Shown here: in pieces, positions 3,045-40,486 of the stretch
How the letters are laid out: every line of letters starts with the position of its first letter
Numbering within the stretch: the first letter of the stretch is position 1
Virus record (IMG/VR): IMGVR_UViG_2565956726_000008
Strand: one strand, 5' to 3'
DNA length: 64,000 nt
Source of the DNA: a virus
Lineage: Duplodnaviria > Heunggongvirae > Uroviricota > Caudoviricetes
Position numbers and translations under genes: made by a program
The notes under the pieces: model-generated
Seen by the model: only the letters and a program-made list of their open reading frames with translations
The model's database searches: none
Told to the model about the DNA's origin: nothing

Positions 3045-3521
3045 ATGTCTCAGACTTGCGAAAAAGGCACGTTTACAGGCCGTGACGTTGCTGTATTCTT
3101 CGCTATCGCTTGTCCAAATGCGAAGCCGGAAGTTGGAGCGTACAAAGCGTTAGGCATGATGCGTGGTAAAACACTTTCCGTTGAATGGGAAACCGCTGAC
3201 GCCACCGCCGATAAATCAGCCGATTACACGAAAGAATCAATGGTTACTTACAAATCCGTTTCTTTCTCCGGCGACGGTGTGTCCCGCACTGAAGAAATCC
3301 ATAATCAGAAAGCGCTGAAACGCCACGTAATTACGCCAGGTGAAACCACCGGATCACAACCTTATGTATGGCTGAAGATCGTTTCTCCTGTAGACGTAAC
3401 TGAAGGCCCATTCCTTTGCACTTCCTTTAAAGAAGAAGATCCGCATGATGATGTTTCCACCTGGTCTATTGAGTGCGAAAGCGCTGGCAAGGTAACGGTA
3501 GGCGACGTTCCGCCAGCATAA
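3045..3521 (+). CDS. major tail (tube) protein, putative
   Basis: 158-aa ORF with RBS, followed by its own terminator hairpin; position between neck genes and chaperone/tape-measure genes. Confidence 0.5.
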   Translation: MSQTCEKGTFTGRDVAVFFAIACPNAKPEVGAYKALGMMRGKTLSVEWETADATADKSADYTKESMVTYKSVSFSGDGVSRTEEIHNQKALKRHVITPGETTGSQPYVWLKIVSPVDVTEGPFLCTSFKEEDPHDDVSTWSIECESAGKVTVGDVPPA

Positions 3522-3538
3522 CAGCCAATATTAACAAT

Positions 3539-3563
3539 CGGGGCCATTTGGCCCCTTTTCTTT
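3539..3563 (+). terminator. rho-independent terminator after tail tube gene
   Basis: Hairpin cggggccatttggcccc followed by TTTTCTTTT. Confidence 0.5.
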
Positions 3564-3567
3564 TAAG

Positions 3568-4254
3568 GTGAATACTATGATCCATGTTCGTACAGGACAA
3601 TTTGCTGCCGTGGTGAACGGTAAGCGCTATGAGTTTAATCCTTGCTTTGCTGCGATGGCTAAAATCGGCAACGATAGTGAGCTTGTCGAATATTTCGCAC
3701 TTATCCACGGCGGCAAATATCCATCACGATTGCCAGCAGATCCAGACCTCCGCAATCGCATTATGGCGCGGTGTTATGGTGAGATAGTACAAACGTCAAT
3801 GCGCATCCTGAAATGTTGCTCAGACGACGAAATAGCCCCGTTATTGGGTGAATGTAGGTCAACTTCTTCCGGCAAGTTACGACTAAAACCCGGACTGATG
3901 CCGACCAGTGACGTTATCACGCTGGCACAACATTGCATGTACCACGGTTTAATCGGTGACGGGCCAGAAGAAGACGCCGGAGAGATCCGGGAAGGGGAAT
4001 ATAAGCCGACTTTTAACGTGCTGGAATTCGTTTATTCTGCCGTAGCTCACCTGGGATTATCTGAATCAGAAGCGTGGAATATGACAATGACCGGATATAG
4101 GGCCGCTGTACGCGCTAAAACGCCGCCAGAAGCAAGAAACAAACAAAAACGCCCAAATGTATTGCTGGATAAAAAGGCTTATGACGATGGAATGAATGGT
4201 GCTATGGAGATACTAAAAAGAATGAAAAATCGCGAGCAAGAAAAAACCCGGTAG
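3568..4254 (+). CDS. tail assembly chaperone-like protein (G/GT position), putative
   Basis: 228-aa ORF (alternative start MIHV at 3577) between tail tube and tape measure genes; no frameshift signal recognised here, so assignment is positional only. Confidence 0.3.
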   Translation: MNTMIHVRTGQFAAVVNGKRYEFNPCFAAMAKIGNDSELVEYFALIHGGKYPSRLPADPDLRNRIMARCYGEIVQTSMRILKCCSDDEIAPLLGECRSTSSGKLRLKPGLMPTSDVITLAQHCMYHGLIGDGPEEDAGEIREGEYKPTFNVLEFVYSAVAHLGLSESEAWNMTMTGYRAAVRAKTPPEARNKQKRPNVLLDKKAYDDGMNGAMEILKRMKNREQEKTR

Positions 4255-4269
4255 ATCCGGGCGTTTTTG
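4241..4269. terminator. bidirectional terminator between convergent genes
   Basis: aaaaaa-cccgg-tagat-ccggg-cgttttt: short hairpin flanked by an A-run and a T-run, lying between the + strand chaperone gene and the - strand cassette. Confidence 0.45.
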
Positions 4270-4279
4270 TTAAGTTCGC

Positions 4280-4600
4280 TTATGCTATTTTTTCGTAAAG
4301 CACATTCATCTGGGTGCGAATCACTGTTAATATATTGATTGCTGCGTTCTTATTAATGCGTTTATTCGCTACTATTTTTGTTTTCCCATCAATAACAACC
4401 AGATCTGCGTGCAATACATGGTTGAAGTTGACAATGTAATAATACTGTTTATCGCCAACATGTTGAACATATGCACCATTTAGATTTCCTTTATACCCAC
4501 AATCACGCTCTGCGACACCGAAGTCAAATTCGCGGTTCATCTTGCGATTATATGCTACTTGTTTATGTTCCCATTTTCTCATCCATTCATCGCGTTTCAT
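4280..4600 (-). CDS. hypothetical protein (moron cassette 1, distal gene)
   Basis: 106-aa minus-strand ORF 9 nt downstream of the lipoprotein gene, antisense to the tail operon; no family recognised. Confidence 0.45.
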   Translation of the reverse strand: MKRDEWMRKWEHKQVAYNRKMNREFDFGVAERDCGYKGNLNGAYVQHVGDKQYYYIVNFNHVLHADLVVIDGKTKIVANKRINKNAAINILTVIRTQMNVLYEKIA

Positions 4601-4609
4601 GTTTCACCC

Positions 4610-5269
4610 TTAATTCCAGTTGCAAGCGTTTTTCACTTTGTCGATGTGGTTATAAAGACCATCAATGTTAAACACTGCTTTCTCAATGTCGCCAGCTTCC
4701 GGCACTGCTTCAATGATAAATTGTTTTTCGTTAACCAGTTTTTTAATCATTGGGATGGCTTTTTTGCCGTCCCATAATCCAAGAGCTTTATAATTAGTTG
4801 ACCGCCACCACTCAGTAGCTACAGCTTTGTGATCGCCGATCCGGTAGTTAATATAAGTAGTGTCCCCAGCGTCAGTTACATGGTTTGACCATGCTACGAA
4901 CATTTTTGTTTTATTACCCTGGCAAGCGATTGTTAATACAGGTTTGTTTTCATCCCGTGCTTTCAGTGTAGGGAAAGCATCAAGACTTCCGCTGAAATGT
5001 TCTGCTTTCACGAAAAGGAACACGTTTTTTGTGTCCTGCATATCATCTTTTCTTTCGACCACAAGCCACTGTTTACCAGCTTTTTCTTTTGCTAACTGTG
5101 CCTCATATGCGGCTTGTTTTGCTTGTTGTTCTGCAAGCCATTTAGCATTTTTCTCTGCTAATGCTTGTTGTTCTTGAGTGGTCACTATAGGCGCTTTTTC
5201 ATTATCCTCATTGCAACCAACCAGACCCAATACCGCCGCAATCATTGCCACTTTTGCTAACCGTTTCAT
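4610..5269 (-). CDS. lipoprotein (moron cassette 1), function unknown
   Basis: 219-aa ORF; N-terminus MKRLAKVAMIAAVLGLVGC has a signal peptide and lipobox (LVGC); GGTGGG Shine-Dalgarno upstream. Confidence 0.6.
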   Translation of the reverse strand: MKRLAKVAMIAAVLGLVGCNEDNEKAPIVTTQEQQALAEKNAKWLAEQQAKQAAYEAQLAKEKAGKQWLVVERKDDMQDTKNVFLFVKAEHFSGSLDAFPTLKARDENKPVLTIACQGNKTKMFVAWSNHVTDAGDTTYINYRIGDHKAVATEWWRSTNYKALGLWDGKKAIPMIKKLVNEKQFIIEAVPEAGDIEKAVFNIDGLYNHIDKVKNACNWN

Positions 5270-5315
5270 AACCCACCACGCTAACTTGATTTACTGACCA
5301 TTCCCTTTGGCTTCT

Positions 5316-5357
5316 TTATACAAAATGGAGTCGTTGAAGTAAAGCCATTTTGTATAA
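5316..5357. promoter_or_regulatory. 13-bp perfect inverted repeat in divergent intergenic region
   Basis: ttatacaaaatgg (5316-5328) and ccattttgtataa (5345-5357) are exact reverse complements, between the divergent lipoprotein gene and tape measure gene; TATAAA -10-like element at 5353-5358. Confidence 0.35.
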
Positions 5358-5396
5358 AATAGATACACAGATCACATTTTTGCATGAGGTTAAATC

Positions 5397-7739
5397 ATGG
5401 ATACCAGTGTAGGTACAATTTATTACGAAGTTGATGCGAAAACTAGTCAACTTCTCGTTGCACAACGACAGGCAGACCAGGCCTTTGGGCGTATAGAGCG
5501 CGGCGCAAAACAGGCTGACCGCCAGGTAAACACCCTGAAAACATCCATCAAGGCACTGACCAGGGTTATCCATTTGCTAATTGCTGCGGAGGCCGTGCGT
5601 CAATTCATGGATATGGCGGAGCAAGCAAAAATGCTTCGCGTAAAAATCAAAATGCTTACGGGCGATGCGGAGTCCGCCGGACGGGTTTTTGATGGCCTGA
5701 AAGCAATATCAAAAGAAACAGGCCAAAGCATGAAGGATACCGGGGATCTGTGGCAAGGCTTAGCTATCTCACTGAAGAACACGTCCGCCACTGAAGGGCA
5801 ATTGCTTAACCTGGTAGGTACGATTCAGAAAATGGGGGCATTAGGCGGCGCGTCAGCGGAACAGATGTCTAACTCAATGCGTCAATTCCGTCAGTCTATC
5901 GACGGCGGTGTTCTTCGTGCCGAAGAATTTAACAGCCTGCTTGAAAATACGCCGACCATCGTACAAACAATGGCCCGCCATATGGGATTATCAATGGGCC
6001 AGTTCCGCGCCGAAATGCTGGACGGCAAGATCACGGCTGAAAGGATGGTTAACGCAATACAGGCGGCTACGCAGGAAACAAACGATAAGTTTGCTCAGTT
6101 GCCGCGCACATCCGGCATGGCTATCAATGAGCTTAAAGTAGAAATTATGGGCCTTGTTGAGCAGTTGGATGATCTTTTTGGCGTGTCAGATGGCGTTGTT
6201 TCAGCTATCGACTTGATCACGAAAGGCGTTAAAGGGCTTGGCGATGGCGCTAAATTCGCTAAAACCTGCTTCGACACACTCAAAACGGCTGGTAGCGAAT
6301 TTATCGACATGTTTGATGATGTGGCTGTTAAGGCTGGAGAGGTGGCAGAGAAGATCATCGCAATGGTGACGCCAATCAAGGCGCTAATGGATGGCTATAA
6401 ATGGATGAAGGAGGTAGTAGGAGAGCAAACCGACGAATATAACAGCAACTACGAGAAGAAATACGGGAAGACCGTTGGCAAGGTCATGCAACTACAGGAT
6501 GATCTGACCGCAGCAATCCAGGCTACAGAAGAAGCAAGGAAAAATGAACAGAATGCTGCCAATGACGGAGCGATTACCGGATTCGACAAGCCAGTAGACA
6601 AGCCGAAAAAACAGAAAAAAGAGAAGAAATCGGAAGCTGATCGGCTTGGTGACAAAGGTATAAGCGTTTCTGATCAGTACAACAAAGACGCCGCCGCCAT
6701 GCGCAAAGCGTTGGAGAACGGCAAGGCCATTGATGCTGCATTTGCCCAGGGTAAAATCACGCTCCTTGAGTACCGCGCCGCGCAAAAAGGGATCGGCAAG
6801 GAACTGAAAGAAGAATTAGCACAAATTCCGGTAGATGAATTGCGTGATAAATGGTCACAAATAGTAAGCCCGATGGATCAGCTAAAAGGCGAAGTTGACC
6901 CCATCCAGCAGGCGCAAAATGAATGGGCCATCCGTAAGCAAATGCTTATAGACCTGGGCGCTACTGAAGCGCAACAGAAACAGGAATTGTTAGCCTATGA
7001 GCAACAGATCCGCGATCTGAAATGGGAACAATGGCAGGCGCAAAGCGACACAAACGGCCTTATCGGTGATTGTGTTAATGGCCTTAAAGGCGGAATGAGT
7101 AATGCGCTTGTTGGCCTGTTAAACGGCACTCAATCATTGAGTGATGTTTTTGCTAACTTAGGAAGCAATATACTCGGCAATATCGGTAACAGACTCTCAG
7201 ACATAGCTGCAAACTGGATAGCAGATCAGATCATGATGGAGACACAAAGCAAGGCCACGCAAACAAGTACAACAGCAAGCGCGGTAGCAGCTCAGGGAAG
7301 CATTGCTGCGGCGGCGGCCCCAGCAGCGGCGGCAACTGCGGCGTCAACTGGCGGTAGCTGGGCGGCGGCTGGTTCGGCGGCGCTCACTGCGATCATGTCG
7401 CTGGCTACGTCAATTTTCGGCGGCGGTCGCTTTAATGGTGGTAGCGTCATTGGTGGTAATATGTACCGCGTAGGGGAACACAACAGGCCGGAGCTATTCC
7501 AGACATCTAACGGCAATCAATATATGATCCCTGGCGAGAACGGCAGAGTTATTCCGGGCCGTGATATTGGCGGCGGTGGCGGTATTAGTATGCCTGTCAG
7601 TATCAGCATTCAGACCACGAACGGATTCAGCGACGAAGACAGCCGCAGACTTGAATTAACAATGGAACGTGTAGCCATGAAAATGATAACAAGGGAATCT
7701 CAAAGACCAGGCGGAATGTTGCAACCTCGCCGCAAATAA
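5397..7739 (+). CDS. tail tape measure protein (prophage A)
   Basis: 780-aa ORF, long predicted coiled-coil N-terminal part, Ala/Gly-rich C-terminal segment (AAAAPAAAATAASTGGSWAAAGSAALTA), position upstream of M-L-K-I-J. Confidence 0.8.
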   Translation: MDTSVGTIYYEVDAKTSQLLVAQRQADQAFGRIERGAKQADRQVNTLKTSIKALTRVIHLLIAAEAVRQFMDMAEQAKMLRVKIKMLTGDAESAGRVFDGLKAISKETGQSMKDTGDLWQGLAISLKNTSATEGQLLNLVGTIQKMGALGGASAEQMSNSMRQFRQSIDGGVLRAEEFNSLLENTPTIVQTMARHMGLSMGQFRAEMLDGKITAERMVNAIQAATQETNDKFAQLPRTSGMAINELKVEIMGLVEQLDDLFGVSDGVVSAIDLITKGVKGLGDGAKFAKTCFDTLKTAGSEFIDMFDDVAVKAGEVAEKIIAMVTPIKALMDGYKWMKEVVGEQTDEYNSNYEKKYGKTVGKVMQLQDDLTAAIQATEEARKNEQNAANDGAITGFDKPVDKPKKQKKEKKSEADRLGDKGISVSDQYNKDAAAMRKALENGKAIDAAFAQGKITLLEYRAAQKGIGKELKEELAQIPVDELRDKWSQIVSPMDQLKGEVDPIQQAQNEWAIRKQMLIDLGATEAQQKQELLAYEQQIRDLKWEQWQAQSDTNGLIGDCVNGLKGGMSNALVGLLNGTQSLSDVFANLGSNILGNIGNRLSDIAANWIADQIMMETQSKATQTSTTASAVAAQGSIAAAAAPAAAATAASTGGSWAAAGSAALTAIMSLATSIFGGGRFNGGSVIGGNMYRVGEHNRPELFQTSNGNQYMIPGENGRVIPGRDIGGGGGISMPVSISIQTTNGFSDEDSRRLELTMERVAMKMITRESQRPGGMLQPRRK

Positions 7740-7745
7740 ACTAAA

Positions 7746-7775
7746 TCCCGGTGCAATGCCGGGGTTATTTTTCGT
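7746..7775 (+). terminator. rho-independent terminator after tape measure gene
   Basis: cccggtgcaatgccgggg hairpin followed by TTATTTTT; near-identical hairpin sequence to the terminator at 1198-1229. Confidence 0.55.
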
Positions 7776-7825
7776 ATTTATAAACGACCATTCCGCGCGA
7801 TATATCCCCTTTCGAATATCTCGAC

Positions 7826-8080
7826 TCACTTATGAGTGCCTTTCACGCCACATAACTTGTTATAGGCATGGTGCTCAACAATTAACCAAACCTTCAAATC
7901 TTCGCTAAACAGCCTCCAATCAAGATTGATATCCATTTTGTATCCGTAACCGTCGCGTAACTTTTTGGGGTAAACTTCTTTTCTCAGAAAGGCTTTAAGT
8001 AATTCCTTACCTTTCTTGATGATCCGGTCCTGTGCGTTTTTCTGTGCTTTCAGATTTCTGTCAATCGCTACCAGTTTCAT
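7826..8080 (-). CDS. hypothetical protein, possible RelE/YoeB-like toxin (moron cassette 2, distal gene)
   Basis: 84-aa minus-strand ORF; loose resemblance to YoeB/RelE-type toxins (QDRIIKKGKELLK; DWRLFSEDLKVWLIVEHHAY). Assignment is weak. Confidence 0.35.
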   Translation of the reverse strand: MKLVAIDRNLKAQKNAQDRIIKKGKELLKAFLRKEVYPKKLRDGYGYKMDINLDWRLFSEDLKVWLIVEHHAYNKLCGVKGTHK

Positions 8081-8097
8081 AACTCACCCCATCATCC

Positions 8098-8253
8098 TTA
8101 GTTAAGTGCCTTCAGGAAGAAGTCCCGGTATTCATCTTCTTTCGCATTCATCATGAATTGACCGTATTTGAATGCGTCGTCGAAACCCTTAACGATTGCT
8201 ATTTCCACTTGTTCGAATGCGTTATTTAGCATTACTACTACATAGCGTTTCAT
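8098..8253 (-). CDS. small hypothetical protein (moron cassette 2, proximal gene; candidate antitoxin)
   Basis: 51-aa ORF not in the provided track (below 60 aa); ATG at 8251-8253 preceded by GGAGG at correct spacing; stop 17 nt upstream of the 84-aa gene start. Confidence 0.4.
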   Translation of the reverse strand: MKRYVVVMLNNAFEQVEIAIVKGFDDAFKYGQFMMNAKEDEYRDFFLKALN

Positions 8254-8420
8254 TTTGGGCCTCCTTCGTTGGTACTACTTTCTTCTTGCTTTCTATATAC
8301 ATCTTGTTGCGTGCTATGTGAAGCCATTTTGTAAACTAGCTATAATCATTGTGACAATGATCTTATTTTTCGCGTAGAAGCGCGTAAAGATATATACAAA
8401 ATGTAACTTGTGGGGGTTTT

Positions 8421-8774
8421 ATGCCGGAAGTGTTCAGATGGACGCCGCAAAGAAGCTACAGCGTGACCAGGAAGCCAGACGTATCTGTTGTTAAGCTGGG
8501 CGATGGTTATGAGCAAAGACAGGTAAAAGGTATCAATCCATTGCTTGATAGCTACACCCTGGTGTTTAAAGGCAGTAGCGCCGGATGTGGTGATGGTGGA
8601 AACGTAGCAATCCAGGCGGAAGCATTCTTGAGGGCGCGCGGCGCGGTCGAGGCTTTTTACTGGTCGCCGTCAATGGATAACGTGCAAAGGCTTTTTGTCT
8701 GTCGGCAATGGAGCATGACTAAAGACGGGCCTTTGTACACGCTAAACGCAACGTTTGAGCAAGTTGTTGGCTAA
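8421..8774 (+). CDS. minor tail protein M (lambda gpM homolog, divergent)
   Basis: 117 aa; shares lambda M hallmarks (FRWTP..., KLGDGYEQR, C-terminal FEQVVG). Confidence 0.8.
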   Translation: MPEVFRWTPQRSYSVTRKPDVSVVKLGDGYEQRQVKGINPLLDSYTLVFKGSSAGCGDGGNVAIQAEAFLRARGAVEAFYWSPSMDNVQRLFVCRQWSMTKDGPLYTLNATFEQVVG

Positions 8775-8971
8775 TGGGGGTTGTTATGTACGGGACTTGT
8801 GTAGTTGACAAAACTTACGCTTTTACATTGTTTGACGACTATGAGATCAACGACCTTACTGTAAAAGCTGACAACGGCGATATATGGTATCTTCACGACG
8901 TTGGTGATGGGTACGTTGGGTGTAGATCCCGGGAAGGGAAGGAGGTTTTATTTTTGGTTGATGGCGTATAA
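8774..8971 (+). CDS. hypothetical protein translationally coupled to M
   Basis: 65-aa ORF starting in TAATG overlap with M stop; no lambda counterpart between M and L. Confidence 0.4.
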   Translation: MGVVMYGTCVVDKTYAFTLFDDYEINDLTVKADNGDIWYLHDVGDGYVGCRSREGKEVLFLVDGV

Positions 8972-8975
8972 ACAC

Positions 8976-9003
8976 GACCCCGCGCGAAGCGGGGTTATTT
9001 TTA
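8976..9003 (+). terminator. rho-independent terminator
   Basis: ccccgcgcgaagcgggg hairpin followed by TTATTTTTATT. Confidence 0.5.
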
Positions 9004-9127
9004 TTCTATTTCCATTAATGCTATATTTTCTGCTATCGTTTTCCAGTCCAGATCTACAGCATGAACGCCAAATACTATCAACCCCATTATTATTAGCGCC
9101 AAAACTTCTATTTTTATAATCAGTCAC

Positions 9128-9376
9128 CTATAAGTTATCACGCAGATAATTAACGCCCTTATCAGTGACGAATGAATGGTTAACCTGGTTTTCATCCGTC
9201 ATGATGATGAATAACTTTTCATGTAGGTATTTCGCTTTCGGGTACAGCGTTAAACAGACCTGGTACAGTATCCCGCGCTCAATCAGCAAATCAATAAATT
9301 CGTGTTCATGATAACCGATGAGGCGGGCGGCCTGTTTCAACGTGTACACATAATCACCGTGATTGCGCCGCCCCAT
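9128..9376 (-). CDS. hypothetical protein with HTH-like segment (moron cassette 3, gene 3)
   Basis: 82-aa minus-strand ORF; YTLKQAARLIGYHEHEFIDLLIERGIL resembles MerR/excisionase-type helix-turn-helix. Confidence 0.45.
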   Translation of the reverse strand: MGRRNHGDYVYTLKQAARLIGYHEHEFIDLLIERGILYQVCLTLYPKAKYLHEKLFIIMTDENQVNHSFVTDKGVNYLRDNL

Positions 9377-9385
9377 GTTGCCGCC

Positions 9386-9733
9386 TTATTTATCGAATGC
9401 TGAAAGGTTATCGATACAGAAATCTTTCGCCGCTTTTTCGTATTCGCGTTTTGCTTCTGGATCGTCAGCCGGGAAACCTTTTGCGTGTATTTCACCAGGG
9501 CAAGACTGGTCCATAGAATCTGCATAATAAGCAGTGAAGCTACCATTAATATCTTTCGGGTTCATATCTTCCACCTCATCAACTATCTGTACCGGATTAG
9601 CAGCATATTTCACTGGATGGCCTAAACTACATTCAAGAATCCTGCCTTCTTCCAGGGCTACTTCTTCGCTATCAAATAATCCGAAACACTCCTTGCTACC
9701 ACTTAACCACACATCAAGACTGTATTTTTTCAT
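9386..9733 (-). CDS. hypothetical protein (moron cassette 3, gene 2)
   Basis: 116 aa from internal ATG (MKKYSLDVWLSG...); the 149-aa listed ORF would overlap the upstream gene extensively. N-terminus appears paralogous to gene 1. Confidence 0.45.
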   Translation of the reverse strand: MKKYSLDVWLSGSKECFGLFDSEEVALEEGRILECSLGHPVKYAANPVQIVDEVEDMNPKDINGSFTAYYADSMDQSCPGEIHAKGFPADDPEAKREYEKAAKDFCIDNLSAFDK

Positions 9734-9902
9734 TTTTGTTAGCCTCATATTTGACAGGTTCGATCTGGTATCCCAAAAGGCGGTCATCCTCAGCAAGTAA
9801 AAGCGCGTCAACCAATGCTTCACCCTCGTCGTCATACAGGGCGATAACCTTTTCCCTACCGTCTGTCATGAATACCGTCAACTTCCATAGCTTTTCAGTC
9901 AT
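9714..9902 (-). CDS. hypothetical small protein (moron cassette 3, gene 1)
   Basis: 62 aa from internal ATG (MTEKLWKLTVFMTDGREKVIALYDDEGEALVDA...); overlaps gene 2 by 20 nt. Confidence 0.4.
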   Translation of the reverse strand: MTEKLWKLTVFMTDGREKVIALYDDEGEALVDALLLAEDDRLLGYQIEPVKYEANKNEKIQS

Positions 9903-10031
9903 AACGCACCTCCGCGCCATTTTGTTAACTATGCTTCCGTTTGAGTAAAATATACATATTGTAAAAACCGCGATCAATCCATTTTGGTATGATTTAGCGT
10001 GACGCAGATCACAGAATGACAAGGTGAGAAA

Positions 10032-10736
10032 ATGCGCAATATTCCGAGAGAAATGATTATTGATTCCGTCGATGCCGGAGTCGGCGCGGTAATTGACTTG
10101 TTTGAATTAGACCTCACGCCCCTGGGTGGCGAGGTTATCCGCTTCCATTCCGGCGTGAATGGCTATTACGGCCCGGTTATCTGGAAGGGGGTGGCTTACA
10201 ACAGCTACCCTATCGAGGCCACTGGCTTCGAAATGAAAAACGAGGGTGTCTATTCACGCCCGCAAATGGTTGTAGCCAACATTGGCGGCCTAATCACCGG
10301 GATGAATAACGATTTCAACGACCTGCGAGGAATGAAAGTTACACGCCGCCAGGTGGAAGTAAAATACCTGGACGCCATCAACTTCCCCAACGGCAACCCG
10401 GATGCAGATCCGTCTATCGAGGCGGTGTCTTTTTACGTCGTTGAGGCGATGAGCGAAGAAACAGCCGACCAGGTGCAATATGAGCTGTCAACGCCAATTG
10501 ATGCTGACAAGGCGGTTATCCCAGGGCGCACAATCCTTGCTGACGTTTGCCAATGGCAATATCGCGGCGACGGTTGCGGATACAGTGGCGGCCCTGTAGC
10601 TACTGATAAAGACGAATCGACCAGCGATCCAAAGCTGGATAAATGCAGCCACCGCCTGAGCGGTTGCCGTTTACGTTTCCCGCGCCCGAATCCGTTACCA
10701 ATTTCATGTTTCCCAGGATCGAGCAAGGTGGGTTGA
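10032..10736 (+). CDS. minor tail protein L (lambda gpL homolog, divergent)
   Basis: 234 aa; alignable with lambda L (e.g. WQYRGDGCGYSGGPVA vs lambda WTYRGDECGYSGPAVA). Confidence 0.85.
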   Translation: MRNIPREMIIDSVDAGVGAVIDLFELDLTPLGGEVIRFHSGVNGYYGPVIWKGVAYNSYPIEATGFEMKNEGVYSRPQMVVANIGGLITGMNNDFNDLRGMKVTRRQVEVKYLDAINFPNGNPDADPSIEAVSFYVVEAMSEETADQVQYELSTPIDADKAVIPGRTILADVCQWQYRGDGCGYSGGPVATDKDESTSDPKLDKCSHRLSGCRLRFPRPNPLPISCFPGSSKVG

Positions 10737-10738
10737 TT

Positions 10739-11470
10739 ATGGCACTTGAAGATAAAATGATTCGCTATGCAGCAGCCCACCCGCGCGAGGAAGTGTGCGG
10801 GCTGGTGATAGATAACGATTATTTTTACCCGTGCGCTAACGTGTCTGAAACGCCGCACAACAGCTTTAAAATCTCGCCTGACGATTATATCAAAGCTGAC
10901 GAATTGGGCGTTATAACAGCCGTTTTCCACTCTCACGTTGAAGATATTCCGGTATTGTCGGCACGGGATCGACAACAGCAGGTTATTTCCGGCCTGCCGT
11001 GGTTTTTATGTTCCGGTGGCAGGGTTAGAAAATTCCGCCCGGTAGCGCACCTGTTAGGCCGAAAATTTGAGCACGGGAAAACAGACTGCTACGCGCTTTT
11101 CCGCGACGCATATCACCTTTGTGGCGTGGATCTACCGGACTTCGAGCGCCTTGATGGCTGGTGGCTGCGTGGGGAAAACCTGTACATAAAAAACCTGCCA
11201 TTGAACGGGTTTTTCATGGTTGATGCGCAAAGCATTCAGCCTGGTGACGTGATTATTCGCCAGCCGTTCAAGGGTGCTGACCCATGTCACGCGATGATTT
11301 ACCTGGGCGATAACACTGTTTTGCATCATGACAATGCCGGACTGCTAAGCCGCCGCGAGCAAATGCGGCCCGCGTATGTTCGACAAACGCATTCAATATG
11401 GAGATCTGACAAATGCTCAAATTTAGATTTACGGGCAATCTTCGAAGATATTACGGCAAAGTGTGTTTAA
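10739..11470 (+). CDS. tail assembly protein K (lambda gpK homolog; NlpC/P60 and JAB/MPN-like)
   Basis: 243 aa from MALEDKMIRYAAAHP; conserved HSH and C...H motifs as in lambda K; start 3 nt after L stop. Confidence 0.8.
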   Translation: MALEDKMIRYAAAHPREEVCGLVIDNDYFYPCANVSETPHNSFKISPDDYIKADELGVITAVFHSHVEDIPVLSARDRQQQVISGLPWFLCSGGRVRKFRPVAHLLGRKFEHGKTDCYALFRDAYHLCGVDLPDFERLDGWWLRGENLYIKNLPLNGFFMVDAQSIQPGDVIIRQPFKGADPCHAMIYLGDNTVLHHDNAGLLSRREQMRPAYVRQTHSIWRSDKCSNLDLRAIFEDITAKCV

Positions 11471-11943
11471 ACGTTGATACGCCAGCACAAGGACTTAGCC
11501 TATTGACCGCGCAGAATCAGGAGTTCAAGAAGGCTTTTTTAAATACACCTTTGCGGTTACGGATTGCCGGGAAAGATTATAACGAAAAGACGGCCCCGGC
11601 AGCGGTTAATAGTAAATACCCTGACGGAACTACCGTCATTATTGCGCCAGTAGTTGAAGGCGGTATTGCTGGGATTGGTGTTGTAGGCTGGATCCTGATT
11701 GGTGTTTCGGTGGTTAGCGTTGCGTTCTCAATCTTTATGTCCCGCAACATGAAGATAAAAACATCGGCAGAAAGCGCACAAGATAACACCATAACGAACA
11801 ACACCTACACCAGCATTGAAAACAAGGTGGGCCAGGGTAGACCAGTGCCAATACTATTAGGTGAAATGAAAATAGGTTCAAACGTCGGATCGTTAGGCAT
11901 AGACACAAGCAACAATAGAGACGCCTTAGACGTTGTAAGTTAA
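11413..11943 (+). CDS. tail assembly protein I (lambda gpI homolog, divergent)
   Basis: 176 aa overlapping the 3' end of K as in lambda; C-terminus LLGEMKIGSNVGSLGIDTS resembles lambda I LYGEMRVGSRVVSQEIST. Confidence 0.7.
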   Translation: MLKFRFTGNLRRYYGKVCLNVDTPAQGLSLLTAQNQEFKKAFLNTPLRLRIAGKDYNEKTAPAAVNSKYPDGTTVIIAPVVEGGIAGIGVVGWILIGVSVVSVAFSIFMSRNMKIKTSAESAQDNTITNNTYTSIENKVGQGRPVPILLGEMKIGSNVGSLGIDTSNNRDALDVVS

Positions 11944-11956
11944 CAGGAGAAAAACC

Positions 11957-14900
11957 ATGAGTAGCGGCGGCGGCAAAGCCAAAACACCAACATTATTGAA
12001 CGATAACCTGTATCACAAACAGTTTTATCGTGTTTTAGATATTCTCAGCGAAGGGCCGATATACGGTCCGGTAAACCAGAAAGCGCCATTGAATGACGTG
12101 ATGCTTAATGACACTCCTGTTACTGACGCAAACGGGAATACATCAATTCCGGGGATTAGTATAGCCTGGCGCAACGGCACGGCTGACCAATCGCCGATTA
12201 ATGGTTTTAACGCCATTGAGTCAACCGTTATTGTCAACGCAAAGGTAACTCACGACACACCAATAATCAGGACTGTTTCAGATCCAAACGTTACCCGCGT
12301 CAGGTTGAATCTTGGTGTTGATGCTCTCGTTCAGTCAGATGAAAAGGGCAATCAATATAATACATCCGTCATGTTGATGGTTGATGTTAAACCGTCATCA
12401 TCTTCTACGTGGTCGCTGATTAAAGACATACACATTGGCCCTGGTAAACAAAGCGGTGAATACCTGGAAGCTCACATCATTAAAGCGCCGGATGAAAAAC
12501 CGTTTGATATTCGCGTTCGTCGCATAACACCAGACAGCAACGGCGATCTATTGCGGAATGATACGCGGTGGAGTAGTTACAGCGAAATAATAGATGATAA
12601 TCTGTCTTATCCTCATACCGCTGTAGCTGGCGCCGTAATTGACCATGATCAGTATACTGATACGCCTACCCGCACCTATCACCTTCGCGGCCTGATTGTT
12701 GATGTGCCTGACAACTACAACCCTGAAACGCGCACATATTCAGGTTTATGGCTTGGTGGATTTAAAAAGGCGTATACCAATAACCCTGCATGGCTTTTCC
12801 GGTATCTGGTTAAAAACGAGCGCTTTGGACTTGCTCGACATGCTGGTTACATTGATGTTGATGATGGCGCTTTGTACGTGCTTTCTCAATACTGCGATCA
12901 GTTGGTTGATGATGGCTATGGTGGCCTTGAACCTCGCATGACGCTTAACGCTTACATTACGGAGCAAATGAGCGCCCGCGACCTACTGGATAACATCGCA
13001 GGTATGTTCCGTGGTATCGCGTTATGGGACGGACAACGTCTTACCGTGATGATTGATGCGCCACAAGATCCAATCGCCACCATCACAAATGCAAACGTCG
13101 TTGATGGCGCGTTTACTCGTTCAAGTATCGCACGCGCAGAATGCTACAACGCCGTGATCGTATCCTGGACTGACCCTGAAAACGGCTGGGAGCAATCAAA
13201 AGAATATGTCGCAGATGATAAACTAATCGCCCGTGATGGTTATAACGAAACCACGTTGGAGGCGTTCGGTTGCACTTCACGCGGGCAAGCGCACCGCGCT
13301 GGTAAATGGCTGATCGAAACAGCGAAACGCGAGCCGTCAAAATTCACATTTAAAATGGCCCGTGACGCCATTCACTTTACGCCGGGGGATATAATCGAGA
13401 TCCTCGATAATAATCGCGCAGGCGCTCGTTTAGGCGGTCGCATCGTGGCGAACAATGGCAGAGCGATCACGGTCGACAAGGTTGATTCTGAATATATCGC
13501 GGCTGGCGACACCATCAGCTTACTTGATAGCGATGGTAAATTTAAAAAACACCAGATCATCGGAGTTAACGGGAACATTATCACCCTTGCAGCCGCCCCG
13601 GCGTGGATTCGTAACGGCACTGTTTTTGCTGTATCAACCAACGCAGCAAAACCCGTTTTATGTCGAATCACCAGTGTAGCAGAAACAGAAAATAACAGCG
13701 TATACACCATCGAGGCCGCACAGCATGATCCACATAAGCAGGCCGTAGTCGATAATGGCGCAATCTTCGAGATCAATAACGACACGCTTAATCACTTCCG
13801 CGTGCCGAACATTGAAAATCTGAAGGTGTTAAACGTTGGATCTGAAACGGTTCAATGTCGCGCAACATGGGAAACACAGACGACAACGCGTCGCCTGACC
13901 TTTGAGATTCGCGTGTATAACGCCGAAGGCGCTGTAGTTAAAAGCTACGAAACCACGAATTACAGTTATGATTTTTATGGCATTGATGCTGGCAACTACT
14001 CATTAGGCATTCGTGGCAGAAATGACACGGGCATGAAGGGTGCGGAAAGCATTGTCGATCTGGTTATTGGCGCACCAGCGGCCCCAGTTGGCGTTAATTG
14101 GGTTCCCGGTGTATTCCAGGCTACAGTTTACCCGATCAGCAGAACAACGCTCACCACTGATACCAGTTACGAGTTTTATTACTCAGGTGAAACGCAGATC
14201 ACTGATCCGGCATCAATAACCACTAAAGCACAATATACCGGGCGTGGTCATCAGTGGACGTTTGGCGGCATGAATACAGGTCACACATATTACGTTTATG
14301 TGCGCGCGCGTAACGCTTTTGGTGTGTCTGACTTTGTGGAAGCGTCAGGTAAGCCAACAGAAAACTTTGATGAAATTACCGATTACGTCACCAAAGACGT
14401 AATGAATTCCAAACAATTTAAAGAAATGGTTGGTGACATTAAAGATCTAGGCGACCGCACTGATCTTATCGAAAGCGCTACGAATGACCTTAAAACTGCT
14501 ACTGACAACCTCAAAACTGCAACTGATAATCTGACCAACATAACTGACGATTTAAGGACTGAAACTGACAACCTAACCATAGAAACAGGATCAATAAAAG
14601 CTGATACTGATACGCTCAAAAAAGAAACGGAAGATCTTTATAAAAAAGTTAAGGAAAACGCCGATGATATTGGACAGCATGAGTCGAGAATCGACTCGCT
14701 GGAGGTGTCTAGCGAAAAAGTTGGCAGCGAACTGGCGCAAGCAAAAGCAAGTCTGCAAAACGCCTCACTTGCTCTTATTAATAACTCGCTTGCACAGACT
14801 AACACTCGCGTAACTCTTACCGCTCAGTACAAGAAAGGCAGGACAGAGACGAAAGCGGAAATTGACCGCATTGACAACGTTATCGCTGAAGAGAAAAAAG

Positions 14901-16819
14901 CGACAGCGGAATCACTGGAAACCATCACGGCAGAAATGAATGTGATGGACACAAACCTTAAAGGTCAGATCTCTAATGTGCAACGCGCAGTAGCTGACGA
15001 GGCCAGCGCCCGCGCTGAAGCTATTAACGGTGTAAATGCCTCAATAAGCAATCTTGACAAGAAAACTGACGCCAGCGTAAACCGTCTTGATCAGGCAATT
15101 GCAGACGAAACAAGTGCGCGTACTCAGGCTATCAGCGACGTGAACGCAAGTATCTCAACACTTGACAAGAAAACTGACGCCAGCGTTAAGCGCCTCGATA
15201 ATGCAATATCAGATGAAACGCAGGCAAGAAGCGACGCAATAACAGTGGTTAAAGCTGATTTAACAACGCTTGAAAATAACACAAATGCCAGTGTTAGCCG
15301 TCTTGATCAAGCTATCGCTGATGAATCAAGCGCACGTGCTCAGGCGATATCAGGTATCAGCGCGACGCTTGGCGGCGTTAAAAGTGAGGTTGATAAAAAC
15401 AGCGACGAGATAGATCAGGCGAAAGCAAGTCTGCAAAACGCATCTCTGGCGCTTATTAATAACTCAATGGCGCAAAGCAAGATGAGCACTGTTATTGAGG
15501 CGAAATACAGGAAAGGACAAACAAAAACAAAAGCGGAAATAGCAAGGGTAGACACAGCAATCGCAGATGAGGCGAGCGCACGCGCAGAAGCTATTAGCGG
15601 GGTTAATGCGTCAATTTCCACGCTCGATAGCAAGGTGACAAGCAACGTAACCAGGATGGATAAAGCGATCGCAGATGAGAAGAATGCACGCACTGACGCA
15701 ATCAGCAGCCTTAACTCATCGCTTACCAGTACGATTAATTCGAAAGTATCCGAAGTGTCAACTGCACTTTCTACGCATGAAACATCAAGCGCGGAAAAAT
15801 TTGGCCAGATCTCGGCATCTTTCGACGATGTAAACTCAAGCATCACGGAATGGTCACAGGCTATGGCAACGGCAGACGAGGCATTGTCAACCAGAATCGA
15901 CCAGTTGAAAGTAACTATTAACGGAAACACAACGGCGATAGAAACGACATCAAAAGCACTGACTGACTTCAAAGGTAACGTTGATGCGTCATATTCAATT
16001 AAGATTGCCACTGATAAAAACGGTATGAAATACGCTACAGGAATGTCGCTCGGCCTTACTGGTAGCGGGACTAACGTTCAATCGCAGTGTATTTTCCTCG
16101 TTGACCGTTTCGTGCTTATGACTGCGGCAGGTGGCTCCTATCAGACCCCGTTCTATGTTACTAACGGTGCTTGCTACATCCGTGATGCGTGGATCAGAGA
16201 CGCATCAATCACTACCGCGAAGATTGCGCAGCAAATTCAGTCAACCAACTATAAAGCTGGTTCGGCTGGCTGGATGCTAAATAAAAACGGCAATGCGGAG
16301 TTCAACAACGTCACTGTACGCGGTACGGTGTACGCAACATCTGGTAAATTCACTGGTGAGATTCAGGCCACAAGCGGGAAGTTTAAAGGTACAGTAGAGG
16401 CAAAGTCATTTGTCGGTGACGTTGCTAACATGGGGGTTGGTCCAGATCGAGTGCTTGGGCATAACGGAAGTTATAGCGCAACCATCACATATAAAGACAG
16501 CACGGATAATGCATTGACGAAATCAGTTATGCTTATGGCGACTATTTCATTAATGTCTGGTGAATATAGATCCACTTATAACGTAACGTTTAGTTGCGGA
16601 GATAAAAACAAAACAATTTCATATTACGTGCCTTATGGTGGATGCACATTAACAGTGCAATGCGCTTTTTCTGGTTTAAAAGCATCAGATATTATCGGGA
16701 AAATATATTGTCCTCAAACATCATCATCTGAAGGATACGCATATTGTACCGCGTTGTATTCTCCAACAATGATAGTAGCAAGAGGCACCGGATCATTTAG
16801 AACATCAACGACAGCATAA
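11957..16819 (+). CDS. host specificity / central tail fibre protein J (lambda gpJ homolog with extended repeat-rich fibre region)
   Basis: 1620 aa; N-terminal 1100 aa alignable with lambda J; followed by about 450 aa of coiled-coil-type repeats and a distinct C-terminal domain not resembling the lambda J LamB-binding end. Confidence 0.85.
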   Translation: MSSGGGKAKTPTLLNDNLYHKQFYRVLDILSEGPIYGPVNQKAPLNDVMLNDTPVTDANGNTSIPGISIAWRNGTADQSPINGFNAIESTVIVNAKVTHDTPIIRTVSDPNVTRVRLNLGVDALVQSDEKGNQYNTSVMLMVDVKPSSSSTWSLIKDIHIGPGKQSGEYLEAHIIKAPDEKPFDIRVRRITPDSNGDLLRNDTRWSSYSEIIDDNLSYPHTAVAGAVIDHDQYTDTPTRTYHLRGLIVDVPDNYNPETRTYSGLWLGGFKKAYTNNPAWLFRYLVKNERFGLARHAGYIDVDDGALYVLSQYCDQLVDDGYGGLEPRMTLNAYITEQMSARDLLDNIAGMFRGIALWDGQRLTVMIDAPQDPIATITNANVVDGAFTRSSIARAECYNAVIVSWTDPENGWEQSKEYVADDKLIARDGYNETTLEAFGCTSRGQAHRAGKWLIETAKREPSKFTFKMARDAIHFTPGDIIEILDNNRAGARLGGRIVANNGRAITVDKVDSEYIAAGDTISLLDSDGKFKKHQIIGVNGNIITLAAAPAWIRNGTVFAVSTNAAKPVLCRITSVAETENNSVYTIEAAQHDPHKQAVVDNGAIFEINNDTLNHFRVPNIENLKVLNVGSETVQCRATWETQTTTRRLTFEIRVYNAEGAVVKSYETTNYSYDFYGIDAGNYSLGIRGRNDTGMKGAESIVDLVIGAPAAPVGVNWVPGVFQATVYPISRTTLTTDTSYEFYYSGETQITDPASITTKAQYTGRGHQWTFGGMNTGHTYYVYVRARNAFGVSDFVEASGKPTENFDEITDYVTKDVMNSKQFKEMVGDIKDLGDRTDLIESATNDLKTATDNLKTATDNLTNITDDLRTETDNLTIETGSIKADTDTLKKETEDLYKKVKENADDIGQHESRIDSLEVSSEKVGSELAQAKASLQNASLALINNSLAQTNTRVTLTAQYKKGRTETKAEIDRIDNVIAEEKKATAESLETITAEMNVMDTNLKGQISNVQRAVADEASARAEAINGVNASISNLDKKTDASVNRLDQAIADETSARTQAISDVNASISTLDKKTDASVKRLDNAISDETQARSDAITVVKADLTTLENNTNASVSRLDQAIADESSARAQAISGISATLGGVKSEVDKNSDEIDQAKASLQNASLALINNSMAQSKMSTVIEAKYRKGQTKTKAEIARVDTAIADEASARAEAISGVNASISTLDSKVTSNVTRMDKAIADEKNARTDAISSLNSSLTSTINSKVSEVSTALSTHETSSAEKFGQISASFDDVNSSITEWSQAMATADEALSTRIDQLKVTINGNTTAIETTSKALTDFKGNVDASYSIKIATDKNGMKYATGMSLGLTGSGTNVQSQCIFLVDRFVLMTAAGGSYQTPFYVTNGACYIRDAWIRDASITTAKIAQQIQSTNYKAGSAGWMLNKNGNAEFNNVTVRGTVYATSGKFTGEIQATSGKFKGTVEAKSFVGDVANMGVGPDRVLGHNGSYSATITYKDSTDNALTKSVMLMATISLMSGEYRSTYNVTFSCGDKNKTISYYVPYGGCTLTVQCAFSGLKASDIIGKIYCPQTSSSEGYAYCTALYSPTMIVARGTGSFRTSTTA
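14455..14640 (+). repeat. tandem 21-bp (7-codon) repeats inside J
   Basis: Encodes ATNDLKTATDNLKTATDNLTNITDDLRTETDNLTIETGSIKADTDTLKKETEDL; repeated gctactgacaacctcaaaact-type units. Confidence 0.5.
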
Positions 16820-16822
16820 AAA

Positions 16823-16850
16823 ACGGGGCATAAGCCCCGTTTTTTTTTAT
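16823..16850. terminator. bidirectional terminator after J
   Basis: aaaaaacggggcataagccccgttttttttt: hairpin flanked by A-run and T-run between convergent genes. Confidence 0.6.
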
Positions 16851-16859
16851 GCATTGTTT

Positions 16860-17105
16860 TTATTTTTTACACCCATCATTTACACCAGAAAAATGGATAG
16901 GTAAATTACATTCACTGTCAATAATTTTACCTTGTAGTTGTTTTTCTTTCCATGAGTCAGTATTGAAATAACTCGAACGTTGGTTATCAAGGCCAGTATC
17001 ACCATATTGAGCAGTGCCAGCATCACTCTTATCTGTCGAATTTACAGAAGCAAAAGCACCAAAAGACAGAGCTGATAAGATGCAAGCAACAATTAGTTTT
17101 TTCAT
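16860..17105 (-). CDS. small secreted cysteine-containing protein (moron, lom/bor position)
   Basis: 81 aa from MKKLIVACILSALSFGAFA (signal peptide); three Cys in the last 20 residues; minus strand between J and the tail fibre gene. Confidence 0.5.
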   Translation of the reverse strand: MKKLIVACILSALSFGAFASVNSTDKSDAGTAQYGDTGLDNQRSSYFNTDSWKEKQLQGKIIDSECNLPIHFSGVNDGCKK

Positions 17106-17302
17106 TGTATTCACCTTACTGTTTGTTTTACTGTCATTTGTTGTTCGTGATGATCCACCCATCCGATGAGCAAATCACCGCAGAAGCTATCATTTCGTAT
17201 GTTGATATAGATCAAAAAATACACTATGTATAAGCCCAAAGTGTAACACAGATCACAAAATGGTAGAATTGTTTAGTTAATTAACAAAACGGAGTTATTG
17301 CG

Positions 17303-19823: not shown

Positions 19824-20828
<1,005 letters not shown>

Positions 20829-39947: not shown

Positions 39948-40486
39948 TTTACCCAACGAATACAGGAAAAAGCGGAGAACACCTTCGTCTCGCCACGCTG
40001 GAAAGTGTCTGGATTCAGGGCAAACTGCGTATGTGGGGGCGCTGGTCGTATATTGGCGGTGGCAGGTCAGGAAATATGTTCAATCAGTTGTTGGCATCCA
40101 AAAAATTGACGAAAACAGCCATCAATGAAGCCCTGCGCAGAATGAAAAAAGCGGGAATAGAGAAAGCTGAGCTGGAAGCGTTTTTGCGAGAGATGATCAA
40201 CGGCAAGCAAAAGAGCTGGCTGGCGCATTGTACTGATGCAGAGGCGTTATGTATTGATCGAGTCATAAGTGAGGTGCTGGCAGAGCATCCTGGATTGATT
40301 AGTGTCCTCCGGCAACGGTATGAAGGACGGGGGATGACTAAGCGCAAAATGGCTGAATTGCTAAATGATGCACATCCTGAGTGGTGTTTTAGCACATGCG
40401 AAAAGCGAATTGCTAATTGGTTGGCTGTTGCTGAGTATGCCCTATATATTCCCATGCGAGAATCATTTGCTCAAAAAATAGCTTGA
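39944..40486 (+). CDS. late-gene antiterminator Q-like protein, putative
   Basis: About 180 aa from GTG at 39944 (listed ORF starts earlier at 39824); last gene before the terminator and lysis cassette. Assignment is mainly positional. Confidence 0.4.
   Translation: MIYPTNTGKSGEHLRLATLESVWIQGKLRMWGRWSYIGGGRSGNMFNQLLASKKLTKTAINEALRRMKKAGIEKAELEAFLREMINGKQKSWLAHCTDAEALCIDRVISEVLAEHPGLISVLRQRYEGRGMTKRKMAELLNDAHPEWCFSTCEKRIANWLAVAEYALYIPMRESFAQKIA

Follow-up and report, generated by a model that had tools for sequence, protein, structure and literature searches.

Repeated motifs beside four accessory-gene slots of an mEpimmI coliphage tail operon: candidate two-way promoter regions

Introduction

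Why does one short AT-rich sequence recur where reverse-strand accessory genes meet the next tail gene of a temperate phage? The question is raised by positions 5316–5377 of a 64,000-nucleotide stretch of viral DNA (IMG/VR record IMGVR_UViG_2565956726_000008; below, the window means this whole stretch), located upstream of a tape measure gene. A sequence-only reading had noticed there the word ccattttg (or caaaatgg) together with a second word, cacagatcaca, had seen the first beside all four and the second beside three of the reverse-strand cargo blocks of the tail module, and had taken them for conserved promoter or operator modules, or for recombination linkers, at the insertion points of morons.

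Window bases 1 to ~20,000 are the head–tail part of a prophage with 80–87% identity to the Escherichia phages MagusPhagus, mEp021, mEp554, mEp010 and mEp044. The prophage is an mEpimmI (mEp021-like) coliphage; it shares 97.8% identity with a prophage of E. coli M1/5 and was found in 35 of 5426 complete E. coli genomes. The mEpimmI group was defined in 2025, and its phages were reported to be common in the human gut (PMC11893012); the same paper is silent on morons, late-region promoters, repeated motifs and transcription starts of the tail region. Annotated relatives match the layout of the window, with reverse-strand genes in four fixed slots: between the chaperone and tape measure genes, the tape measure and M-like genes, the gp70-like and L genes, and the J and tail fibre genes. 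Each of the four cargo blocks has, as the earlier reading said, a GC hairpin at one edge and an AT-rich junction at the other; we call the junctions J1 to J4. Our analysis suggests, with moderate confidence, that these junctions are conserved, compact two-way regulatory regions of the mEpimmI backbone, with predicted promoters between leftward cargo and a rightward tail gene.

Results

Recurrence of short sequences in the four junctions

The repeated short sequences are real and stand far above chance. The 9-mer ACAAAATGG/CCATTTTGT is common to all four junctions and CAGATCACA to three. In 1000 dinucleotide-preserving shuffles of the junctions, no word of 8 or 9 nt was ever common to all four, and this test, by allowing any shared word, corrects for choosing the word post hoc. 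Moreover, CAGATCACA has three copies in 64 kb, all on the plus strand and all in junctions, against 0.47 expected (0 of 100 shuffles reached three), and CCATTTTG has 15 copies against 5.06 expected. AT-rich background does not account for the frequency of the motif.

All strings quoted in that proposal are present: ccattttg or its complement within gccattttgtataaaat (5344–5360), gccattttgtaaac (8323–8336), tccattttggtatgat and cacaaaatgg, the second word as acacagatcaca at 5365–5376 and 17246–17257 and as gcagatcacag at 10004–10014, TATAAT at 8341–8346, and TGGTATGAT at 9985–9993. Two coordinates needed a shift by one base, tccattttggtatgat lying at 9978–9993 and cacaaaatgg at 17254–17263. A literature search with the motif string returned irrelevant, eukaryotic matches only. 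Two other candidates for what is repeated were rejected, namely the palindrome ATACA-N3-TGTAT as the true unit (5 copies against 1.84 expected, reached by 4 of 100 shuffles; perfect in some orthologs only) and small open reading frames (ORFs) starting from the ATG within the motif, which by inspection are unconserved.

Promoter-like sequences in fixed register with the motif

On the minus strand, J1, J2 and J3 follow one pattern, ACAAAATGG-N-(-35)-17-(-10), which is also found in the mEp021 early promoter 5′ of the N-like gene. The sequences read ACAAAATGG-C-TTTACT-17-TATAAA in J1, ACAAAATGG-C-TTCACA-17-TATATA in J2, CCAAAATGG-A-TTGATC-17-TATATT in J3 and TACAAAATGG-A-TTGACT-17-TATATT in the early promoter. 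In J1, the predicted leftward -35 is at 5338–5343 (minus strand) and the -10 at 5320–5315, with a predicted start near 5308; the predicted leftward promoters of J2 and J3 occupy 8294–8322 (-35 at 8322–8317, -10 at 8299–8294) and 9949–9977 (-35 at 9977–9972, -10 at 9954–9949), both on the minus strand. Predicted leftward leaders are 34–40 nt in J1–J3. The leftward A-tract falls at -43 to -40, one base from the -35 hexamer. The proximal UP subsite, which is bound by the alpha subunit of RNA polymerase, has the consensus AAAAAARNR at -46 to -38. At J1, J2 and the early promoter, TACAAAATG spans exactly these positions and agrees with the consensus at 7 of 9, and J3 has the similar ACCAAAATG. The A-tract of ACAAAATGG may serve as an alpha-subunit proximal UP subsite beside the -35 of a predicted sigma-70 promoter for the cargo.

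On the plus strand, the motif abuts a -10-like hexamer facing the tail gene in each junction: CCATTTTG-TATAAA or TAAAAT in J1, CCATTTTG-TAAACT followed by a perfect TATAAT in J2, CCATTTTG-G-TATGAT in J3 and AAAATGG-TAGAAT in J4. Here the motif would provide the spacer end and the -10 of a sigma-70 promoter, restarting tail-gene transcription past the preceding terminator. Likewise, PL, E1 and E2 of mEp021 read TTGNNN-16-(CCRTTYTG)TAWACT, and boxA and boxB of nutR2 come directly after E2. The predicted back-to-back starts of each junction are ~57–66 nt apart. Besides the start near 5308, leftward starts are predicted near 8287 and 9942, and rightward ones near 5365–5367, 8353, 10000 and 17276.

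The copies themselves, all given on the plus strand, differ in their surroundings. J1 has two, which form the inverted repeat already noticed; it is perfect, with arms of 14 rather than 13 nt (5315–5328 and 5345–5358) that stand 16 nt apart. The left arm, J1a (TTTATACAAAATGG), reads CCATTTTG-TATAAA on the minus strand, that is, spacer end plus leftward -10. The right arm, J1b (CCATTTTGTATAAA), abuts the rightward -10 region (TATAAA at 5353–5358 or TAAAAT at 5355–5360), predicted to serve the tape measure gene (5397–7739, plus strand), and leftward it places ACAAAATGG-C directly 5′ of the -35. The repeat would therefore be two such promoters back to back in their most symmetrical form. In J2, CCATTTTG-TAAACT (8324–8337) gives ACAAAATGG-C directly 5′ of the -35 on the minus strand, the TATAAT at 8341–8346 is the predicted rightward -10 of the M-like minor tail gene, and a second copy, J2b (TACAAAATGT, 8395–8404), stands 17 nt 5′ of the start codon of that gene. 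In J3, copy J3a (CCATTTTGTTAAC, 9917–9929) lies in the 5′ untranslated region of the leftward cargo, 3 nt from the ribosome-binding site; copy J3b (CCATTTTG-G-TATGAT, 9979–9993) forms an extended -10, TGG-TATGAT, facing the L gene, and on the minus strand CCAAAATGG-A directly 5′ of the -35. In J4, ACAAAATGG (17255–17269) overlaps an extended -10, TGG-TAGAAT, facing the tail fibre gene, and a degenerate copy, TTAACAAAACGGAG (17281–17294), holds the ribosome-binding site of that gene and resembles the E2a copy of mEp021.

Other features of the junctions were recorded beside these. Six GATC (Dam) sites fall within the ~560 bp of J1–J4, where roughly 2 would be expected; some are part of predicted -35 hexamers (TTGATC, J3 and J4), and the family has adenine methyltransferases of its own. 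The 5′ leader of the M-like gene has a boxB-like hairpin, CGCG-tagaag-CGCG (8371–8384), kept in ~29 orthologs with a varying loop; a nut site in J2 was rejected, as this small hairpin is conserved but no convincing boxA accompanies it.

CRP-type and FNR-type sites

The second word, cacagatcaca, is the strong half of a CRP-type palindrome (GTGA-N6-TCAC), of which AGATCACA is the consensus right half. Every junction has such a site. In J1 (5358–5379, centre 5368.5) the site includes acacagatcaca; its right half AGATCACATTT is perfect and its left half AGATA poor (p ~0.015; p-values are against composition-matched shuffles of each junction). J2 has TGTGA-N6-TCTTA at 8350–8365 (centre 8357.5; TCTCA in most relatives; p ~0.03–0.05), J3 has CGTGA-cgcaga-TCACA at 9998–10013 (centre 10005.5; p ~0.0015), which includes gcagatcacag, and J4 has TGTAA-cacaga-TCACA at 17242–17257 (centre 17249.5; p ~0.001), again including acacagatcaca. 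With a CRP matrix rebuilt from classical sites, which is a lead and not a curated model, J4 (17.8 bits) and J3 (16.6) are the best two matches in 64 kb, J1 is fifth and J2 eleventh. The J3 and J4 scores are within the range of known sites (consensus AAATGTGATCTAGATCACATTT, 22 bp), and the six best matches in the whole mEp021 genome are all in motif-bearing intergenic regions. Counts of the CRP core pattern over the whole window were not above chance, and hence location, matrix score and conservation carry the CRP argument. Among 26 orthologs of J3, CGTGA and ATCACA never vary, whereas the 4 nt at the centre occur in at least 8 forms; J2 is similar, and in J1 ATCACA is invariant and the palindrome centre variable.

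The centres of these sites lie at -60.5, -70.5 and -63.5 from the leftward starts of J1, J2 and J3, at about -59.5 in E1 and E2, and at about +2 to +6 from the rightward starts of J1–J3; that of J4 falls near -26 relative to the rightward promoter. From palindrome centre to -10, the distance is 47.5–51.5 nt in four cases and 58.5 nt in J2. At lac this distance is 49.5 nt and at malT 58.5 nt, and the leftward figures are close to the class I positions of these promoters (-61.5 and -70.5, respectively). From such positions CRP could raise leftward cargo transcription with class I geometry, occlude the rightward tail promoter, or do both.

In J4, an FNR-consensus palindrome, TTGAT-atag-ATCAA (TTGATATAGATCAA, 17202–17215), is the only perfect one in 64 kb. 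Judged from these sites, the modules most likely take host CRP/FNR input. The FNR-type palindrome lies 41 bp left of the J4 CRP-type site, upstream of the slot that carries exclusion lipoproteins in relatives, and its halves are kept in orthologs whereas the central 4 nt vary.

Conservation of the junctions as phage backbone

Orthologs were taken from 80 IMG/VR loci collected with the M-like protein as query, 31 of which are within the family. In J1 (21–26 sequences), TATACAAAA, CATTTTGTATA.AATAGA, ATCACA and the ribosome-binding site are invariant, and the leftward -35 keeps TT.A.T. In J2 (~29 unique sequences), TATAAT is invariant and tgtgaa nearly so, the leftward spacer varies, and the leftward -10 is TATATA or TATACA. 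Both leftward hexamers of J3 (gatcaa/aatata) are invariant in 26 sequences, and the four sequence types of J4 (22 sequences) all keep a good -10 (TGG-TAGAAT, TGG-TAAAAT, TTAAAAT and TGG-TATAAT). Hexamers are kept among relatives while the spacer varies, as expected of sigma-70 promoters.

In alignments with eleven genomes carrying other cargo, homology resumes at 5298–5317 (J1), 9866–9916 (J3) and 17191–17261 (J4), and these break points are just downstream of the predicted leftward starts. Because homology includes the predicted promoter regions, those regions belong to the phage backbone and the cargo is swapped beyond them. The motif therefore does not delimit insertions as the sequence-only reading implied, nor does it move with the cargo: the junctions are backbone, and homology resumes 0–25 nt past the motif. 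J3a is the only copy where cargo types, five different ones, join the backbone exactly at the motif edge.

Slots 1–3 are never empty in ~30 genomes (681–1692 bp). Slot 4 is empty in two relatives (L036 and L016); in L036, positions 12275–12390 comprise the J stop codon, a terminator, 89 bp and the fibre start codon. In both empty slots the rightward -10 TAAAAT is kept, and the GATCACA CRP half-site and ACAAAATGG are degenerate, which hints, from two related genomes only, that GATCACA and ACAAAATGG serve the cargo side. In phages with an M protein ~68% identical, the J2 junction does not exist and the tape measure and M genes are adjacent.

The motif across the phage genome and family

The core of the motif is ccattttg, and its extended form is CCATTTTG-TAWAMT. 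Apart from coding repeats, TACAAAATG and ACAAAATGG (11 copies each) are the most frequent words of the mEp021 genome. Over the 20 kb of the window that belong to the phage, a weight matrix gave 12 matches, nine of them scoring at least 14; in the other 44 kb it gave only null-level matches. The genomes of mEp021 and MagusPhagus have ~16–18 strong matches each, in ~9 regulatory regions at orthologous places: both promoter regions flanking the repressor gene, 5′ of the helicase gene, the gap between the N-like gene and gp18, E2 beside nutR2, and J1–J4. E1 has the motif in mEp021 only, and a pair at 40267/40310 is found in MagusPhagus only. The motif is thus spread over the genome throughout this phage family, early promoters included, and its description as a mark of moron insertion points has to be given up. 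A search of IMG/VR for the motif with the downstream promoter pattern returned 130 matches, 107 of them at three orthologous mEpimmI sites; the remainder were scattered, at chance level and promoter-like by construction, and a promoter module outside the mEpimmI family was rejected. So was a Q-binding or late-promoter element, since the interval between the Q gene and the head genes of mEp021, which includes the likely late promoter 5′ of the holin gene, has no motif.

Several observations concern these other regions. E1 (16516–16580) and E2 (20074–20165) of mEp021 (L005) are paralogous modules with a CRP-type palindrome, CGTGAT-N4-GATCACA, then ~30 nt, then CCRTTTTG-TAWACT; as E2 is directly 5′ of the boxA and boxB of nutR2, an internal promoter feeding the nin/Q region is suggested. 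At 40267–40310, MagusPhagus has a second J1-type module, ACAAAACGG-N16-CCATTTTGT, whose spacer is unrelated to that of J1, among small ORFs between the Q-like and holin genes. In addition, the repressor gene gp15 of mEp021 probably starts 51 nt upstream of its annotation (11167–11217, MKTKWYDLAKQLMRAQGMSQ...), and the longer form aligns with lambda CI from residue 15.

Cargo slots and terminators

Slot 1 has a two-way terminator hairpin at its left edge (4247–4261) and encodes, on the minus strand, a VasI/TagO-like protein of 219 amino acids (4610–5269), and a second ORF of 106 amino acids with no assigned function (4280–4600). The VasI/TagO-like family is associated with type VI secretion and is an unusual passenger for a phage tail module.

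Slot 2 is flanked by a two-way terminator hairpin, CCGGTGCAATGCCGGGG (7744–7766), 3′ of the tape measure gene. Its cargo (7826–8253, minus strand) consists of a ParE-like toxin of 84 amino acids (7826–8080) and, upstream of it, a putative antitoxin of 51 amino acids (8098–8253), which are probably a toxin–antitoxin pair. The pair is kept in most family members, and further genes vary between it and the tape measure terminator. The earlier reading had three terminators sharing a ccggNgcaatgccgggg stem; CCGGNGCAATGCCGGGG has only two copies, at 1202 and 7748, of which the first stands 3′ of the capsid gene and not beside a cargo slot. The stem CCGG(C/T)GCAATGCCGGGG 3′ of the capsid gene (1202–1218) and of the tape measure gene (7748–7764) is another duplicated regulatory module of the late region.

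Slot 3 has a two-way terminator hairpin at its left edge (8976–8996) and minus-strand cargo at 9128–9902, with products of 62 (9714–9902) and 115 amino acids (9386–9733) and an 82-amino-acid KilAC/ANT-domain protein (9128–9376). At the left edge of slot 4, a two-way terminator hairpin stands 3′ of the J gene (16824–16839), and the cargo is a small secreted protein (16860–17106, minus strand; likely start at 17106, although the ORF list runs to 17162). In mEp021 and mEp010 this slot carries Lpp exclusion lipoproteins, which have been shown experimentally to exclude superinfecting phages.

Discussion

Divergent promoters in the junctions would explain the fixed registers, the pattern of conservation, the backbone location and the CRP-type sites together. 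Of the earlier proposals we therefore favour conserved promoter or operator modules, as hexamers on both strands stand at fixed distances from the motif and every junction has a CRP-type palindrome, although these promoters are predictions from sequence.

Several points weigh against this reading. In a generic consensus scan, J3 (TTGATC-17-TATATT, minus strand) was the sole junction promoter recovered, and promoter-like sites in 1–20 kb numbered 26 against 35.8 in shuffles, with no enrichment. The leftward -35 hexamers of J1 and J2 are good, but a T at -7 is missing from the leftward -10 of J1 (TATAAA/TATAAG/TATAGA) and of half of the J2 orthologs (TATACA). Rightward, the -10s are good (TATAAT, TGG-TATGAT, TGG-TAGAAT and TAAAAT) but most -35s are poor, and the TG of J1 and J2 is one base off the canonical extended -10 position. 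Some copies stand where a promoter makes no sense: J3a and J2b are in 5′ untranslated regions, and another is 3 nt ahead of the helicase gene's ribosome-binding site, where no promoter fits. Identities of 9–17 nt between sites exceed what a generic UP element or -10 would need. For the CRP-type sites, the poor left half of J1, the geometry of J3 (-63.5, off the optimum) and the uncurated matrix count in the same direction. Moreover, the phage encodes a Q-like antiterminator, and internal tail promoters are consequently not obviously required. The imperfect hexamers, the misplaced copies, the excess identity and Q leave some weight with a phage factor acting on the motif and, at J3a only, with a recombination linker.

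In the first of these, the 14-mer (AGTWTACAAAATGG) would be bound by a regulator that the phage itself encodes, for instance the CI-like repressor Rep021, the Cro-like/MarR-like gp14 or some other factor, and early and tail-slot promoters would be wired into one circuit. This is compatible with promoters in the junctions and gives the motif another job; bound at about -41, the regulator could, for example, turn on cargo promoters and at the same time block the tail promoters that face them. We regard it as possible but somewhat unlikely. Copies stand in both early promoter regions flanking the repressor gene (mEp021 11080 and 11923) and, boxA aside, are the best match common to those two regions; an early promoter and copy E2b agree at 17 of 17 positions; most regulatory regions have 2–3 copies; and the motif-N16-motif arrangement of J1 recurs at MagusPhagus 40267/40310 with an unrelated spacer. 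The motif is conserved beyond the need of a -10 or UP element, and its centre is at about -41, where class II activators sit, as does lambda CI at OR2. However, the site is asymmetric and has no dyad, whereas Rep021 is a lambda-CI-like dimer; copy spacing (25, 34, 37, 62 and 72 nt) and orientation follow no rule, and there is no orientation bias relative to transcription; core positions are mutated in some J2 orthologs (CCATTTCG, CCATATTG and CCGTTTTG); and no candidate protein was identified.

A more specific version is doubtful: that the 14-nt element is the operator by which a phage regulator ties immunity and early control to the late region, turning cargo on in the lysogen from about -41 and tail promoters off, with CRP/FNR adding nutritional and anaerobic input. 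An operator of the CI-like repressor was rejected as a candidate, the motif being without dyad and the immunity regions of mEp021 and MagusPhagus too alike for a conservation footprint. Likenesses to LexA, 434-type, DnaA, IHF, OmpR, sigma-32 and sigma-S sites, judged by eye, were partial or in the wrong register.

Recombination linkers, that is, 'boundary sequences' that guide cassette exchange between phages or are left by it, are improbable as a general account. They find support at a single copy, J3a (9917), where the five cargo types join exactly at the CCATTTTG edge, but the breakpoints of J1 and J4 are scattered, 10–60 nt from the motif. Slot contents are highly variable (681–1692 bp), the phage encodes an Erf-type annealing protein, and similarities of 15–24 nt connect unrelated intergenic regions, such as the fibre ribosome-binding region of J4 and E2a of mEp021. 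On the other hand, the kilobases of conserved tail genes around the slots are enough for exchange by ordinary homology, early promoters and other non-variable sites have the motif too, and a linker would leave the fixed distance to the -35 and -10 hexamers unexplained.

Two explanations, a hairpin and chance likeness, are effectively excluded. If the J1 inverted repeat formed a functional hairpin or cruciform, for instance to signal RNA processing or termination or as a structure in the DNA, the other copies would be half-elements. The 14-nt repeat is indeed perfect, and its RNA folds at -15.4 and -15.5 kcal/mol (z-scores -3.0 and -4.0). Over 21 orthologs, however, 0 of 14 pairs shows a compensatory change, and arm variation breaks pairing (in 14 of 21 at one pair and in 3–4 at others), which argues for two sites instead of a selected hairpin; in addition, the stem is rich in A/U and lacks a U-tract, no repeat of this kind is found in the other junctions, and a search of 3500–18000 for Rfam families at E up to 1 returned none, so that we hold this explanation to be very improbable. 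Least credible of all is chance likeness of AT-rich intergenic DNA, or shared ancestry with no function: the junctions are 34–40% GC and short A/T words recur easily, but the shuffles do not reproduce the sharing, the other 44 kb of the window stay at null level, and the motif is invariant in orthologs that differ at neighbouring positions.

If the junctions are divergent promoters, the tail operon would be split into five transcription units by obligatory accessory-gene slots with two-way promoters of the backbone that have one signature in common and CRP/FNR-type sites. Under the operator alternative, it would consist of regulated two-way switches and not of one Q-driven transcript, a coliphage counterpart of genome-wide repressor sites. 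Divergent promoters would also offer a sequence handle to find lysogen-expressed cargo (exclusion lipoproteins, toxin–antitoxin pairs and secreted proteins), testable predictions on the control of cargo by host physiology, and ready 'expression slots' for phage engineering. Since promoters, CRP sites and morons are well known, the conceptual advance is modest.

Among known systems, morons are an obvious comparison. The moron concept (Juhala/Hendrix) reportedly describes a gene that sits between lambdoid late genes and brings its own promoter and terminator. The slots described here resemble morons in having independently or reverse-transcribed accessory genes between tail genes, bounded by a terminator and a predicted promoter region; in cargo that fits functions expressed in the lysogen (slot-4 exclusion lipoprotein, toxin–antitoxin pair, secreted or lipoprotein-like product); and in the emptiness of slot 4 in some relatives, with adjacent tape measure and M genes in more distant phages. 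Unlike a moron, however, the promoter region is conserved backbone and does not travel with the inserted gene, slots 1–3 are never empty in ~30 genomes, and one sequence module is common to all four slots and also present at early promoters.

With class I CRP-dependent sigma-70 promoters such as lac P1 and malT, the junctions share the 22-bp palindrome with conserved GTGA/TCAC halves and a free centre, the distance of ~48–52 or 58.5 nt from centre to -10, and an A-tract between palindrome and -35. In contrast to these, the sites here are predictions from sequence, only one half of the J1 site is good, and J3 departs from the optimal phase by 2 nt. The site also lies across the start of the opposing promoter, and in J4 it stands near -26 of the rightward promoter.

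Cluster A mycobacteriophages have stoperators, many asymmetric 13-bp repressor sites across the genome. The present motif is similar in being short, asymmetric and intergenic, with tens of copies per genome in the late region and at early promoters. It differs in showing no orientation bias, with both orientations within single operons, in the lambda-CI-type dimer repressor of these phages, and in its fixed register with promoter hexamers.

T4-type PeSL elements, in which a repeated early promoter and stem-loop flank mobile ORFs, and lambdoid 'boundary sequences' are also comparable, as repeated promoter and hairpin sequences flank variable cassettes and could promote exchange. Here, however, only J3a coincides with a breakpoint and the terminator stems are mostly unrelated; and these elements belong to a temperate siphovirus with host-type predicted promoters facing both ways. 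Set beside these systems, the mEpimmI junctions carry a statistically robust, family-specific regulatory signature not described before, most likely divergent promoter modules, composed of kinds of element that are already known.

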